Positions 7,875 through 24,307 of a stretch of 32,000 bases of DNA are shown here, piece by piece. Under the pieces are notes generated by a model, which saw only the letters and a list, made by a program, of their open reading frames with translations, was not told the DNA's origin and did no database searches. This DNA is from Crocosphaera subtropica ATCC 51142 (lineage in GTDB: Bacteria > Cyanobacteriota > Cyanobacteriia > Cyanobacteriales > Microcystaceae): contig NC_010546.1 in NCBI RefSeq assembly GCF_000017845.1, positions 30,001 to 62,000 of the forward strand, written 5' to 3'. The translations under genes were made by a program, and so were the position numbers. Each line of letters begins with the position of its first letter. Positions within the stretch are counted from its first letter, which is position 1.

Positions 7875-7967
7875 ATCCTATGAACAGCATTGACATCTGG
7901 TGAACAGAAGTCAAGTAGAGATACTATAGCCATGACGTAACGTTTTGTAAAGTGTTGCTTACATGAA

Positions 7968-8002
7968 GGCAGGAGGCAGGAGGCAGGAGGCAAGAGGTAG
8001 AA
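7968..8002. repeat. Heptamer tandem array (GGCAGGA x3, GGCAAGA, GGTAGAA), STRR-like
   Basis: Read directly, with period 7 starting at 7968. It lies about 95-130 nt upstream of the minus-strand operon start at 7874. Confidence 0.85.
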
Positions 8003-8125
8003 TATTAGAAGGAGGAGTATAAATAAAATAATACTTAAGCTGATGAGTAAAACGCAACAAGAAGCTAACATTAATGACACGCTTTCTATATTATTAAATA
8101 AAATATGGTATAGCATTTCCCACAG

Positions 8126-8692
8126 TTATGAAGTACAGTAACAGCAATGAGCAAACCAGTTACGAATATCTTTTTGAGTTACTTGTAACATGGCAAAAGT
8201 AAGAGAATCTATTAAATCTTTATAGTTTCTTGCTTTAATTTTTCTTAAAATAGCTTTGACCTTTGACCAAAAGTTTTCAATGGGAGAAAACTCAGGAGAA
8301 TAAGGGGGTAAATACATTAAACTAGCTCCAGCTTCTTCAATAGCCTCTCTGACTATTTCTCCTAAATGAATTTTAGCATTATCCATAACAACACAAGCAC
8401 CTGTCCATAATTTAGGCACTAATTCTGTAACAATAAAAGCTTCAAAAGTCACTCCATTTACTGAACCATAAATATTAGCAAAAGCTAATATTTTTTCTAA
8501 AGATAATGCTCCTATTATCGAGATATTATGCCCTCGCTTTTGTGGCTTTTCCCCCCTAGCTCTTGTTCCTTTTAATGACCTAGCATATAACCTAAGCATT
8601 GCTAGATTGACTCCTGATTCGTCTATAAAGACTAAGTTTTCTACTCTTATTCCTCTGATAACTTTCCAATACTCTACTCTTTTCTTTAGCAC
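8126..8692 (-). CDS. IS630-family transposase, C-terminal DDE part (orfB)
   Basis: LVFIDESGVNL, VVMDNAKIH and PPYSPEFSPIENFWSKVK are the DDE triad regions of IS630/Tc1 transposases. The frame continues upstream (KKTLYAPEKENVKVLKKRVEY) to the A8 run, one nucleotide out of frame with orfA. Confidence 0.85.
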   Translation of the reverse strand: MLKKRVEYWKVIRGIRVENLVFIDESGVNLAMLRLYARSLKGTRARGEKPQKRGHNISIIGALSLEKILAFANIYGSVNGVTFEAFIVTELVPKLWTGACVVMDNAKIHLGEIVREAIEEAGASLMYLPPYSPEFSPIENFWSKVKAILRKIKARNYKDLIDSLTFAMLQVTQKDIRNWFAHCCYCTS

Positions 8693-8708
8693 TTTAACAT
8701 TTTCTTTT

Positions 8709-9074
8709 TCAGGAGCATATAAGGTTTTTTTTAAGAGAATAATTCAGTTTTTGACTTATTCTCCCTATGGTACTTTTTCCAACTTTTACTCCTGTTGCTT
8801 TTTCAAGCAACTCTGATAATTCTTCAAAAGTGGCATCATTATTCTTTTCCATTAGCTCAATTAAGATTATTAATTGTTCGCTATTTAGTTTACAGGGAGG
8901 TCTTCCTCCTTGGGGTAGAGGTCTAATATCTCCAGTTTCTTTATATTTTTTAATTAATTTTTGAATAAAACTTTTCGATACTCCAAAGTGTTGAGCTAGT
9001 TTTCTTATAGAAATTTTCTCTTTTTTCCAAATTTCTATAATCTTATTTCTTAGGTCTATTGAGTAAGGTCTCAT
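8709..9074 (-). CDS. IS630-family transposase, N-terminal HTH part (orfA)
   Basis: MRPYSIDLRNKII...ISIRKLAQHFGVSKSFIQKLIKKYKETGD is a typical IS630 helix-turn-helix region. It ends shortly after an A8 run (T8 on the plus strand, 8725-8732). Confidence 0.85.
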   Translation of the reverse strand: MRPYSIDLRNKIIEIWKKEKISIRKLAQHFGVSKSFIQKLIKKYKETGDIRPLPQGGRPPCKLNSEQLIILIELMEKNNDATFEELSELLEKATGVKVGKSTIGRISQKLNYSLKKNLICS

Positions 9075-9081
9075 TTTTTAA

Positions 9082-9113
9082 GCGATCCCGAAGGGATCTG
9101 CTCCGCAGTGCGC
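9082..9113. repeat. HIP1 octamer split by a 24-nt double-hairpin mini-insertion (copy A)
   Basis: The sequence is GCGAT-CCCGAAGGGATCTGCTCCGCAGTG-CGC. Hairpin 1 is GATCCC-GAA-GGGATC and hairpin 2 is CTGC-TCC-GCAG. Removing the 24 nt restores GCGATCGC. Confidence 0.7.
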
Positions 9114-9217
9114 ATAATATAGTTTCTCCCTTAGTGTACCTCATGGATATGGGAAATGCTATATCTTTTTTCATGATCCTATACCATTAGTTAATCCTCT
9201 TACTTCAATTGGAATAG

Positions 9218-9841
9218 CTTTTTTTTGTAACATATAAAATTGCCAATAATCAAAAATCAATTAATGATAATAACTATAAACAGAAAATTTTAGATGAATA
9301 TCTTAAAACCATAGGAAATTTATTAATAGAGGAAAAACTAACATCAGAAAAATCTCAAGAAAACGCTAGACATTTAGCTCAAGCTTTAACTATTAATGTA
9401 TTATTAGAGTTAGATGACAAAAGAAAACAACAAGCCATTGATTTTCTCTCTAATGCTAAATTACTCGAAGGAGATAATGGCTTATTAAAGAATGCTAATT
9501 TTATGAAATGTGATCTAGAAGAAATTAACTTTAGAAAAGCTAATTTGAAAGGAACTAATCTTCAAAAAGCTAACCTTTAAAAAGCTAATCTAAGACAAGC
9601 TATTCTTTTGCACGAATTTATTTATCCAGTATGGGAAAATGGGAATATTGATTGGAACAATGGAGATAGTCTAAAAAAAATAACAGGAAAAACAGGAGGA
9701 ACAGCTAACCTGACTCAAGCTAACTTAAAAGATGCTAATTTAACAGAAATATTATGGATGACACCAGAACAAATTAAACAAGCATACAATTGGGAAACAG
9801 CCAAATATGATCCAGACTTTAAGAAACAATTAGGATTATAA
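9218..9841 (+). pseudogene. Pentapeptide-repeat protein gene remnant (no usable start, in-frame TAA)
   Basis: The frame-2 reading gives ...NFRKANLKGTNLQKANL*KANLRQAIL... with TAA at 9578-9580. It continues into the listed ORF 9608-9841 (ANLTQANLKDANLTE). The upstream open frame from 9218 has no plausible start, and a T8 run at 9219-9226 sits at the frame boundary. Confidence 0.7.
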
Positions 9842-9938
9842 ATTTTAGAAAAGTAAAATAGATCATTAGTTTGTTAACATAGTATATAGTATAATATATA
9901 TAAATCTTTAAACTAGCACCAACTAAAAAATAGAAATT

Positions 9939-10235
9939 ATGTTTAGTTATGAAATAACATCACCCACTGAAGCAAGAAATAGTTTATTTCAGTTATTGGA
10001 AAAAGTGGCAAAAGATCATCAGGTATGTATCATCAATCGTAATGATGGAGAAAATGTCGCTTTAATTTCTGAATCTGACTTAAGAAGTTTAGTAGAAACA
10101 GTTTATTTATTGCGAAACCCTGCCAATGCACGTCGATTATTTGATGCCATAGACGAATCTATCACGGGAAAAATACAACCTCAAACTCTTGAAGAATTAA
10201 AACAGGAATTAGGAATTGAACAAGAAGAAGAATAA
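9939..10235 (+). CDS. yefM: Type II antitoxin, Phd/YefM family
   Basis: The N-terminal pattern (SPTEARNSLFQLLEKV...VCIINRNDGENVALISESDLRSLVETVYLL) is typical of YefM. It lies immediately upstream of a YoeB-like ORF. Confidence 0.85.
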   Translation: MFSYEITSPTEARNSLFQLLEKVAKDHQVCIINRNDGENVALISESDLRSLVETVYLLRNPANARRLFDAIDESITGKIQPQTLEELKQELGIEQEEE

Positions 10236-10527
10236 GCAAAAAAATGAAAAAAAATCACCTATTGTTAAACAAATTCCTGGTTTTAGTCAGCAATTTAAAG
10301 AAGATTTAAAATGGTGGTTCAAAACTGATCCTAAAAAAGCTTCAAGGATTTTAGATTTAGTGACAGAAGTTATGAAAGATCCATTTCAAGGAATAGGAAA
10401 ACCAGAACCTTTAAAATATATGGATAGCAATATTTGGTCAAGACGCATTGATTTAGAACATCGTTTAATTTATCGAGTTAGTCAAACTCAACTTGATTTT
10501 CTTTCTTGTCGTTTTCATTATGAGTAA
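10216..10527 (+). CDS. yoeB: Type II toxin, Txe/YoeB family mRNA interferase (start uncertain)
   Basis: DPFQGIGKPEPLKYMDSNIWSRRIDLEHRLIYRV...CRFHYE matches the YoeB core and its C-terminal H-Y. The in-frame start is a TTG at 10216, overlapping yefM. The ATG at 10244 is out of frame because of an A8 run (10247-10254). Confidence 0.8.
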   Translation: MNKKKNKQKNEKKSPIVKQIPGFSQQFKEDLKWWFKTDPKKASRILDLVTEVMKDPFQGIGKPEPLKYMDSNIWSRRIDLEHRLIYRVSQTQLDFLSCRFHYE

Positions 10528-10551
10528 ACTAAAACAATTTAGTTAACAATT

Positions 10552-11226
10552 ATGACACAAAGTATCACAAAATCTGCTGTAAATATTCCCCCTTTAGAAA
10601 ATGGCGATCTCGGAGAGATCCGCTTTGCGGTGCGCTTAACTCGTCTGGAGTTTGAAACCCGTTATCAAGAGATGACTCATGTTAAAAAAGCAGAATTAAT
10701 AGAAGGTATTGTTTATATGGGATCTCCTTTAAGAATTAACAAACATGGCGCACCCCACGCTAATATTATGGCATGGCTTGGATTTTATAAAGCTTATACA
10801 AATGGTGTTTAAATAAGGGATAATTGTACGGTAAGATTAGATCCAGAAAATGAACCCCAACCCGATGCTTTATTAAGGATAGAAAAAGTCGGACAATCAA
10901 TAATTAGTGAAGATGGATATGTAGAAGGTTCACCAGAATTAATAGTAGAAATTGCAGCAAGTACCGTATCTATCGATTTACATGATAAACTAAAAGCTTA
11001 TCGTCGGAATCAAGTTTAAGAATATTTAGTTTGGCGAGTAGATGATCATGAAATTGATTGGTTTAGACTAAAAGAAGAAAAATATGTAAAATTAAAAGCA
11101 GATGAACAAGGAATTATAAAAAGTGAAATTTATCCTGGTTTATGGTTAGATGTGACTGCTTTATTAAAGGGAAATTTAGCCAAAGTTCTAGAGATATTAA
11201 ATCAAGGAATCAAATCCTCTCAGTAG
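10552..11226 (+). pseudogene. Uma2-family (DUF820) putative endonuclease, with two in-frame TAA codons and a 24-nt insertion
   Basis: Continuous frame-1 reading: ...PLENGD[LGEIRFAV]RLTRLEFE...TNGV*IRDNCTVRLDPENEPQPDALLRI...SPELIVEIAAS...AYRRNQV*EYLVWRV...PGLWLD... The stops are at 10810-10812 and 11017-11019, and the frame ends at 11224-11226. Confidence 0.8.
10604..10635. repeat. HIP1 octamer split by a 24-nt double-hairpin mini-insertion (copy B)
   Basis: The sequence is GCGAT-CTCGGAGAGATCCGCTTTGCGGTG-CGC. Hairpin 1 is GATCTC-GGA-GAGATC and hairpin 2 is CCGC-TTT-GCGG. Removal restores GGCGATCGCTTAACT, encoding GDRLT. Confidence 0.7.
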
Positions 11227-11364
11227 GAAAGTTTTGTTAATCAATTAACTCTTAAAAATCAAGGGTAAAATCTAATTTTCCTTTAACTTTTAGTTTTTAA
11301 TGTTCCCACATCTTTCTCTGATACCTCAGAAATAAAAGCAATTTAATAGACGAACCTTACTGTT

Positions 11365-11498
11365 TATAGCCAGTTTACCAGTTTAAATGAGTTGTGAAAA
11401 TTGTTTGTTCTGCGTTTCCTGTTTTGATGCTGTTCCCTGTTCCCTTCTCTCAACAAGTACGTTCACGATTCAAATAGACTAGCTATATCTTGAGATAA
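11365..11498. mobile_element. MITE-like imperfect palindromic element (about 134 bp) with TATAGC termini
   Basis: The left end is TATAGCCAGTTTACC. The reverse complement of the right end is TATAGCTAGTCTATT (11 of 15 match), and further internal arm similarity includes TTTAAAT/TTTGAAT and GTGAA. The termini resemble the IS630 IR TATAGCATTTCCCA. It lies in a 500-bp ORF-free gap. Confidence 0.4.
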
Positions 11499-11732
11499 GT
11501 TTGTCAATTTTGTCCATAGACTTGATATTATTAATTATTAATTGTTAATTATTTATTAGATTATAGACTATCTTCTAGGTCAGTAATTTGATAAACTAAT
11601 ACAGTGTTGTTGCGGTGTTTGTATTCCATTCATTCTCAAGAAATGAAGGATTTAGAATCACTCGTACCTTAGTAATGTCAAAAAAAATCCAGAATATCAA
11701 CATCGAAAAAAAAATTAAAAGGAAAGAAAACT

Positions 11733-21389: not shown

Positions 21390-21400
21390 ATTTAAAAAGT

Positions 21401-21428
21401 GATAATTGATAATTGATAATTGATAACT
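21401..21428. repeat. Heptamer tandem array (GATAATT x3 + GATAACT)
   Basis: Read directly, with period 7. It ends 12 nt upstream of the permease ATG at 21389 on the minus strand. Confidence 0.9.
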
Positions 21429-23782: not shown

Positions 23783-24307
23783 ATGGAAAAAATTCACTCT
23801 CCGAACTCCGAACTCCTAACACCCAACTCAGGTTGGTTAGGAATTGATCCAGGATTAGCCATCGTCGGCTGGGCAATGTTACAAGAAAGTGAGCAGCAAC
23901 TTCCTTTAATTATTGATTATGGAACCATTGAAACCAATAAACAATTATCCACCTCCCAAAGACTCTTAGAAATAGAATCAGATTTAGGGGAATTATTAAC
24001 AGAATTTGAACCCCAAGGTATTGCGATCGAAATGCCTTTTTTTAACCGCACCATTAAAGCAGCAGGAGGTGTCATGCAAGCGTTAGGAGTAATTAATTTA
24101 GTCTGTTATCGAGAGACTAATATTGAGCCTATTTTTCTTCATCAAGCTAGTTGGAAATGTCATTTAGGAGACGGGAAAGCTAAGAAAAAAGAAGTCGCCC
24201 AGATGATTACAACTTTGTTTAATTTAGATAAGTTGCCCATCGATGATAGTGTCGATGCGATCGCCATTGCCTATGCCGGATTATGTGGTTTAAGAAATAA
24301 TATCTAA
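23783..24307 (+). CDS. ruvC: Crossover junction endodeoxyribonuclease RuvC, with a repeat-encoded N-terminal extension
   Basis: [12 protein letters not shown] (catalytic Asp region), IAIEMPFF, and the C-terminal [11 protein letters not shown] 17-aa extension precedes the usual start of homology. Confidence 0.88.
23799..23826. repeat. Heptamer tandem array inside the ruvC 5' coding region (CTCCGAA x2, CTCCTAA, CACCCAA)
   Basis: Read directly, with period 7. It encodes [11 protein letters not shown]. Confidence 0.8.

Follow-up and report, generated by a model that had tools for sequence, protein, structure and literature searches.

We describe a family of 24-nucleotide (nt) elements that are dispersed at more than 100 unrelated sites in several cyanobacterial orders and that integrate only into the octamer HIP1 (GCGATCGC), without target duplication. 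Two of them, called copies A and B below, lie in the stretch of Crocosphaera subtropica ATCC 51142 DNA under study (32,000 nt of contig NC_010546.1, referred to in full as the window), copy A in the leader of an insertion sequence (IS) of the IS630 family and copy B in a gene of the Uma2 family. The element has two short stems that are kept by compensatory changes, and its loops vary freely. We consider it very probable that these are non-autonomous, HIP1-targeted mini-elements of the same kind as SDR5, a small dispersed repeat (SDR) of Nostoc, and that they need their hairpins to propagate.

Insertion of a 24-nt element into HIP1

The two copies, with the HIP1 octamers that they split, are located as follows:

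9082-9113, plus strand: copy A and its split target, GCGAT-CCCGAAGGGATCTGCTCCGCAGTG-CGC; read on the minus strand, GCG-CACTGCGGAGCAGATCCCTTCGGG-ATCGC, an insert between HIP1 nt 3 and 4
9087-9110, plus strand: 24-nt insert of copy A; stems GATCCC/GGGATC and CTGC/GCAG, loops GAA and TCC; minor sub-lineage
10604-10635, plus strand, same orientation as copy A: copy B and its split HIP1, GCGAT-CTCGGAGAGATCCGCTTTGCGGTG-CGC
10609-10632, plus strand: 24-nt insert of copy B; stems GATCTC/GAGATC and CCGC/GCGG, loops GGA and TTT; major lineage

A degenerate pattern spanning copies A and B matches twice in the window, for 0.00 matches expected (100 shuffles). Intact HIP1 is also far in excess, with 11 occurrences versus 0.09 expected in a window of 37% G+C, which marks the host as a HIP1-rich cyanobacterium. 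An earlier note on this DNA had reported copies A and B as identical at 17 of 24 positions, with seven differences that are all transitions, four of them paired changes in the stems, and had placed copy A in a HIP1 split between the IS630 terminal repeat and the transposase ATG; coordinates, letters and position were all confirmed, the other three differences falling in the two 3-nt loops. One has to keep in mind that both proposed stems use the C at 32-mer position 17 (9098 in copy A), so that stems 1 and 2 are not full length simultaneously.

The genes that host the two copies are the following:

8111-9161, minus strand: IS630-family IS hosting copy A
8111-8141 and 9131-9161: terminal inverted repeats of this IS, beginning TAGCATTTCCCA, with TA flanks at 8109-8110 and 9162-9163
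8709-9074, minus strand: transposase OrfA, 121 amino acids (aa), helix-turn-helix domains; its ATG, at 9074, is 9 nt downstream of the filled HIP1
8126-8692, minus strand: transposase OrfB, 188 aa, DDE_3
9071-9115, minus strand: possible upstream open reading frame (uORF) in the leader, MRTAEQIPSGSLKK followed by a stop; its TGA overlaps the transposase ATG (ATGA)
10552-11226, plus strand: apparent Uma2-family (PF05685) pseudogene hosting copy B

Copies A and B are identified as insertions because matched empty sites have an intact HIP1. For copy A, an exact-protein look-up of OrfA led to six short contigs carrying the same IS (L001-L006). Five of them (L001, L002, L004, L005, and L006) have the same leader with HIP1 intact and the 24 nt absent (...TATTATGCGATCGCTTAAAAAATG / ...ACTATATTATGCGATCGCTTAAAAAATG), and these empty IS copies are 93-99% identical to the IS of the window. 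The sixth, L003, carries the identical 24 nt in an IS that is 99.6% identical to ours and lies at a different genomic site; it comes from the sequencing series SRR26036486-89, whose Logan assemblies are the only ones where exact matches to other proteins of the window were found, and the filled IS630 thus appears to be present at two genomic sites at least. The earlier note had proposed looking for IS copies that lack the 24 nt and retain HIP1, and using the nesting of copy A in a mobile element to time its insertion; the five empty copies bear out the first proposal, and, with respect to the second, the 24 nt would postdate the split of this IS lineage from its empty relatives. Copy A would, on this comparison, be a recent arrival in the IS630 lineage, acquired after its divergence from the relatives without the 24 nt.

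For copy B, the 24 nt add eight in-frame codons (LGEIRFAV) to the Uma2 gene. A Uma2 homologue that is 57% identical (L202) is without exactly these eight residues, and its DNA there reads GGCGATCGCTTG. The frame of the Uma2 gene is kept throughout, with in-frame stops at 10810-10812 and 11017-11019 where L202 has E and R; judged from these letters, it looks like a recent pseudogene. A third case is the Cas4/Cas1 gene of Synechocystis PCC 6714, to which the element adds 24 nt (8 aa, RTAKRISV), the homologues in Gloeothece PCC 7424 and Nostoc MS1 being exactly 24 nt (8 aa) shorter at the element site.

We thus have three independent pairs of filled and empty sites. In the IS630 leader and in Uma2, excising the 24 nt restores HIP1 exactly, and there is therefore no target duplication. 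The insertion point lies between HIP1 nt 3 and 4, the minus strand reading GCG-CAC...GGG-ATCGC versus GCGATCGC in the empty site; a shared G permits the junction to be drawn one base leftward, as GC-...-GATCGC. When about 0.66 Mb were scanned with the core of the element only, 113 of 120 cores were found between perfect HIP1 halves, most loci having originally been collected with a pattern that included these halves. Of the remaining seven cores, five are flanked by halves that have decayed by 1-3 nt, and the last two, which match the core weakly or in part, are taken as chance. No target specificity beyond HIP1 was found, the outer flanks being like those of ordinary HIP1 sites, and no other recurrent family of split HIP1 was detected in the 0.66 Mb scanned.

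Several features of the host IS deserve mention. The layout of two ORFs (121 aa + 188 aa) is common to every related IS copy, and a run of eight A lies at 8725-8732 on the minus strand, shortly before the OrfA stop. Because of this run near the end of OrfA and of the layout shared by all related copies, the transposase suggests programmed frameshifting rather than a broken gene. The OrfA protein of the empty IS copies is identical to that of the window and their DNA is about 93% identical overall, with differences located mostly in the OrfB half (L006, which covers OrfA only, is 98.9% identical to the window IS); the IS630 element looks mosaic from this distribution. Its nearest DNA relative is a remnant on a plasmid of Gloeothece verrucosa PCC 7822 (94.5% over 217 nt). 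The leader uORF is a 6-codon one in the empty IS copies (MRSLKK, then stop) and reads MRTAEQIPSGSLKK before the stop in the filled one, the 24-nt insert being in frame and stop-free; placed over the transposase ATG, this putative uORF may be a translational-coupling arrangement. A promoter scan gave no consensus site on the transposase (minus) strand; the only promoter-like match was on the plus strand, outside the IS, and matches were fewer than in shuffles.

A dispersed family with two hairpins

In order to collect further copies, metagenome contigs were searched with a pattern that left both covarying pairs and both loops free and fixed 22 of the 32 positions. At least 120 contigs matched; once high-GC chance matches were removed, at least 104-107 copies with distinct flanks remained, all of them in low-GC, HIP1-rich contigs. 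The family consensus is GCGAT-CTCGAAGAGATCCGCTTCGCGGTG-CGC (on the minus strand, GCG-CACCGCGAAGCGGATCTCTTCGAG-ATCGC). Copy B differs little from it; copy A falls into a minor sub-lineage, with CCC/GGG in 14 of 104 sites and CTGC/GCAG in 2 of 104. The insert is 24 nt long, rarely 25 nt, and the 25-nt variants, one of which lies on the chromosome of Crocosphaera watsonii WH 8501 (L099), differ only by a 4-nt loop. Relaxed scans of viral contigs, in which each stem was freed in turn, gave one match each.

A BLAST search of plasmids with the consensus listed Stanieria cyanosphaera PCC 7437 and Stanieria NIES-3757; Picosynechococcus PCC 7002, 7003, 73109, 7117, and 8807; Synechocystis PCC 6714, 7338, 7339, and B12; and Chondrocystis NIES-4102. 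No Nostoc plasmid was among the 60 records listed.

Variants and neighbours of the element were also encountered in these collections. A 23-nt form, GCG-ATCGCTAAAAGCGGCTCTTCGAG-ATCGC, is repeated at 100-nt spacing in L143 (250-285 and 350-385), and partial second copies, which are truncated or tandem variants, lie 30-60 nt from a full copy (L239, 1186-1250; L198, 1941-2033). In the plasmids of Picosynechococcus PCC 7003, 73109, 7117, and 8807 (L254-L257, around position 400), homology ends exactly at the element: the right flanks are homologous in all four and there are three different left flanks, which suggests, on alignment, a recombination at the element or at its HIP1. In six loci (L142, L174, L245, L151, L182, and L215), the HIP1 of the element directly precedes a hairpin repeat that carries GTAGG and resembles repetitive extragenic palindromes (REP), e.g., ...CGCGGAGTAGGTTGGGTTGAGCGAA...GAGCGAAACCCAAC; by its letters, it looks like a second repeat family at HIP1-adjacent sites.

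The earlier note had argued that pairing is kept in both hairpins while the primary sequence drifts, and had called for a larger copy set in which to look for covariation. In the 104 sites, covariation was found at pair 7-13 of the 32-mer (TA 89, CG 14, mismatch 1; Fisher p = 1.5e-17) and, more weakly, at pair 18-26 (CG 93, TA 2, GC 1, TG 2, mismatch 6; p = 5e-4), where three Watson-Crick double changes were counted versus 0.24 expected. Support for stem 2 is, thus, much weaker than for stem 1. Under the two-hairpin model, 98.4% of cells are paired versus 95.8% in shuffles (0/500 as high), and there are 13 double-change cells versus 2.6 in shuffles (0/500). The argument of the earlier note therefore holds, and it is carried by covariation across many copies, not by folding energy. 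As for the compensatory differences between copies A and B, they did not arise in place, the two copies belonging to different sub-lineages.

The loops are about ten times more variable than the rest of the element. In the metagenome copies, the share of non-consensus letters per position is 13-39% in the loops and 7-14% at the free stem positions; in the plasmid copies, for which the BLAST search introduces no bias by position, the six loop positions account for 20 of the 29 differences (p = 5e-9). The minimum-energy fold favours a different second hairpin. Two other structures were tried and set aside: a loop-loop pairing of GAA with TTC, i.e., the long hairpin of the RNA minimum-energy fold of the consensus, has no covariation and equals its shuffles, and UNCG tetraloops do not apply to loops of 3 nt (TTC/TCC on the minus strand).

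All six frames are free of stop codons in the consensus and in 63 of 107 copies, a share to be compared with 15% in composition-matched shuffles and 1.8% in random 24-mers at host composition. With a length of 3 x 8 nt and a stop-free consensus, copies can thus persist in genes as insertions of eight codons. Annotated coding sequences (CDSs) host 10 of the 14 plasmid copies, including those of Cas4/Cas1, NACHT, and diguanylate cyclase. On the other hand, open frames of at least 450 nt contain 38% of the copies versus 62% of intact HIP1, and the element fits the description of a tolerated but mildly harmful insert. Decay is also visible: two G>A changes break stems in the orthologous copies of Picosynechococcus PCC 7117 and PCC 8807, and three changes are seen outside the loops of the Chondrocystis copy.

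Possible mechanism and rival explanations

Copies are found in pseudogenes, IS, and coding regions, in both orientations, and old orthologues have broken stems; for these reasons, selection is more likely to bear on the propagation of the element than on a function for the host. The junction GCGAT-...-CGC coincides with CGAT^CG on one strand and, given the 1-nt ambiguity, with ^GATC on the other. As the insertion is asymmetric relative to the HIP1 palindrome, it suggests a single-strand nick and the joining of a single-stranded two-hairpin unit. We propose the following scenario, whose first step is drawn from the junction positions only: a trans-acting, HIP1-directed enzyme would nick one strand of HIP1; the element, as a single-stranded copy identified by its two hairpins, would be joined at the nick; and the second strand would be completed by replication or repair. 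Only copies with intact stems would serve as sources, hence the covariation, and inserted copies would be neutral passengers undergoing slow decay.

A bolder proposal, which we advance tentatively and hold to be rather doubtful, is that such an insertion system is currently active in tractable cyanobacteria (Picosynechococcus PCC 7002, Synechocystis relatives), with a putative HIP1-specific enzyme nicking at CGAT^CG or ^GATC and joining the 24-nt single-stranded two-hairpin unit. If this were true, HIP1 would serve, at least in part, as the site where a minimal mobile element attaches, and its enzyme would represent a new mode of mobility for DNA far shorter than any transposon.

Several points weigh against a HIP1-targeted element that depends on its hairpins. 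Since the collection pattern fixed seven of the nine stem pairs and left only two pairs and the loops free, covariation was tested on two of the nine pairs; since copies share descent, the number of covarying copies does not give the number of independent events, and a single double change at the origin of a sub-lineage may be enough to account for the covariation of stem 1. A plain mismatch is present at pair 18-26 in 6 of 104 copies, and folding energy is no better than in shuffles (z -0.2 to -1.9; DNA and RNA, both strands). The excess of loop over stem variation could mean that stems are selected at each locus, which a selfish-element model does not predict. Finally, the nick-and-insert step is read from the positions of the junctions alone, and the one IS200/IS605 transposon that adjoins a copy (Stanieria pSTA7437.01) has ends unlike those of the element.

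In an explanation that we judge improbable, the 32-nt unit is an RNA or DNA structural motif selected by the host (a protein-binding hairpin, an mRNA 5' stabiliser, or a translation modulator), kept locus by locus and, in copy A, regulating the IS630 transposase. Conserved and covarying stems with drifting loops are indeed what such a motif would look like, and the hairpin of copy A stands 9 nt upstream of the transposase start, where the insert brings the RNA leader to -17.0 kcal/mol (z = -2.9) versus -2.6 kcal/mol without it; in open frames of 450 nt or longer, orientation is also skewed, with 28 copies in the opposite and 13 in the same orientation. Yet copies occur in both orientations, in intergenic DNA, in unrelated CDSs, in a pseudogene, and in an IS, and they are depleted from long open frames compared with intact HIP1. 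Close relatives of the same genes do without the element, and stem-breaking changes accumulate in orthologous copies. The site is not terminator-like, since it has no T-run, and no Rfam 15 match was obtained at E values up to 1 for positions 8000-11500 of the window.

Another route, which we find quite improbable, would be spread from one HIP1 to another by HIP1-initiated recombination or gene conversion, or by a HIP1-associated repair that copies another filled site. The strict confinement to HIP1 and the lack of target duplication agree with it, as does the homology breakpoint located exactly at the element in the four Picosynechococcus plasmids. Moreover, HIP1 is a proposed recombination hotspot, and published work connects it with site-specific recombination and, in PCC 7002, with enhanced recombination (PMC4390886; bioRxiv 10.1101/2024.09.10.611283). 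However, the flanking homology is limited to 5 + 3 nt, far too short for ordinary homologous conversion, and flanks outside HIP1 are unrelated among more than 100 sites. Such a route would call for other enzymes but concern the same mobile unit, so that it is hardly a rival, and the present data do not separate it from transposition.

Finally, that the 24 nt are simply the ancestral IS630 leader, resembling copy B by chance or local duplication, is refuted, leaving it next to no chance: both IS copies of the window's sample series (window and L003) carry the 24 nt, but five related IS copies are without exactly these 24 nt and have HIP1 intact, and the element is present at more than 100 sites unrelated to one another; in shuffles of the window, the chance expectation is 0.

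Ever since SDRs were described in 2008, the way in which repeats of about 24 nt move has been a standing question, and the role of HIP1 has been debated since the 1990s. The present family shows that HIP1-splitting elements are not confined to the heterocyst-forming Nostocaceae and are common in unicellular lineages; its hosts include naturally transformable laboratory strains (PCC 7002 and relatives of PCC 6803), which makes the mechanism testable. It also matters for annotation: genuine genes (Cas4/Cas1, NACHT, diguanylate cyclase, Uma2) are lengthened in frame by eight codons where they carry the element. Events in other mobile elements can be dated by whether the element is there or not, as for IS630 here.

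Neighbourhood of the copies and comparison with known systems

Between the two copies, a pentapeptide-repeat-like ORF at 9295-9841 on the plus strand (...ANLKGTNLQKANL, stop, KANLRQ...) contains, at about 9578-9580, an in-frame TAA that interrupts it, and would be a second decayed gene within the same 2.5-kb stretch. It is adjoined by a YefM/YoeB-like toxin-antitoxin pair at 9939-10527. A tandem array of the heptamer AGGCAGG (x4.4) at 7967-7997 adjoins the right end of the IS, and further heptamer arrays, of ATTATTA, TGATAAT, and CTCCGAA, lie at 11527-11558, 21400-21426, and 23799-23829; heptamer arrays are reportedly a frequent context of SDR elements in Nostoc. A 42-nt unit is repeated five times at 1702-1917, inside the ORF 1478-2005.

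Among known systems, miniature inverted-repeat transposable elements (MITEs) have terminal inverted repeats that match those of a parent IS and produce target-site duplications. The 24-nt element resembles them (e.g., the cyanobacterial Nezha) in being non-autonomous, dispersed, and sometimes nested in other mobile DNA; it was rejected as a MITE, as there is no target duplication and its ends (CTC..., ...GTG) are not inverted repeats. Rickettsia palindromic elements, which are about 100-150 nt long, belong to a different phylum, and have no HIP1-like fixed target, offer an analogy, being palindromic repeats inserted in frame in protein-coding genes and tolerated as an extra peptide. Elements of the IS200/IS605 family and their miniature derivatives, the palindrome-associated transposable elements (which insert 3' of their target and whose ends match the hairpins of a resident IS200/IS605), measure at least about 100 nt, have subterminal hairpins located away from the cleavage sites, and move by a strand-specific, single-strand mechanism. 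The 24-nt element shares with them a fixed short target, the absence of target-site duplication, and hairpins in place of inverted repeats; unlike theirs, one of its hairpins includes part of the target.

REP and REPIN sequences are mobilised by RAYT (Y1 HUH) transposases; they are extragenic, with a 5' tetranucleotide of GTAG type, and occur as single palindromes or inverted pairs, and their movement is thought to use hairpin recognition in single-stranded DNA (PMC3116915). Like them, the 24-nt element is very short, hairpin-forming, highly repeated, and non-autonomous, with constrained stems and free loops. It differs from them by its two different hairpins, its fixed 8-bp palindromic target, and its often intragenic location; since open frames of 450 nt or more hold 38% of its copies, and CDSs 10 of the 14 found on plasmids, it does not belong to REP/REPIN as defined.

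There remains SDR5 (Elhai, Kato, Cousins, Lindblad, Costa 2008, Genome Res 18:1484). In the papers that describe it, this small dispersed repeat of Nostoc punctiforme/Anabaena is about 21-27 nt long, non-coding, and found only in HIP1, with a hairpin that has compensatory changes and with presence/absence patterns that indicate mobility (PMC4390886, PMC5861425, bioRxiv 10.64898/2026.06.24.733823). It is inserted between HIP1 nt 3 and 4, and Elhai mentioned a directed cutting at HIP1 as a possible explanation of this insertion (PMC4390886). The 24-nt family is likewise small, dispersed, and restricted to HIP1, with insertion between nt 3 and 4, compensatory stems, and filled and empty sites. 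Its length is 24 nt, versus 21 nt quoted for SDR5 in bioRxiv 10.64898/2026.06.24.733823, and its hosts are different: they belong to Pleurocapsales, Chroococcales, and Merismopediaceae (Stanieria, Picosynechococcus, Synechocystis, Chondrocystis, and Crocosphaera), whereas SDR-like repeats are reported, in PMC5861425, as not found outside Nostocaceae.

In 100 kb of N. punctiforme plasmids, no copy of the 24-nt family was found, and its consensus was not found in the literature searched. With no Nostoc plasmid among the BLAST records listed and no copy in these 100 kb, the family appears to be different in sequence from SDR5, to which it was compared by published description. On the N. punctiforme plasmid pNPUN01 (L271), two split HIP1 sites (45416-45448 and 48398-48431) read GCG-AAGCTATGCCGCAGGCTT-ATCGC and GCG-TAGCCATGCCGTCAGGCTT-ATCGC; these two inserts, related to each other and unrelated by their letters to the 24-nt family, may be genuine Nostoc SDR elements. 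The 24-nt element is, all in all, best filed as a new family, with a new host range, of the known kind of repeats that split HIP1.

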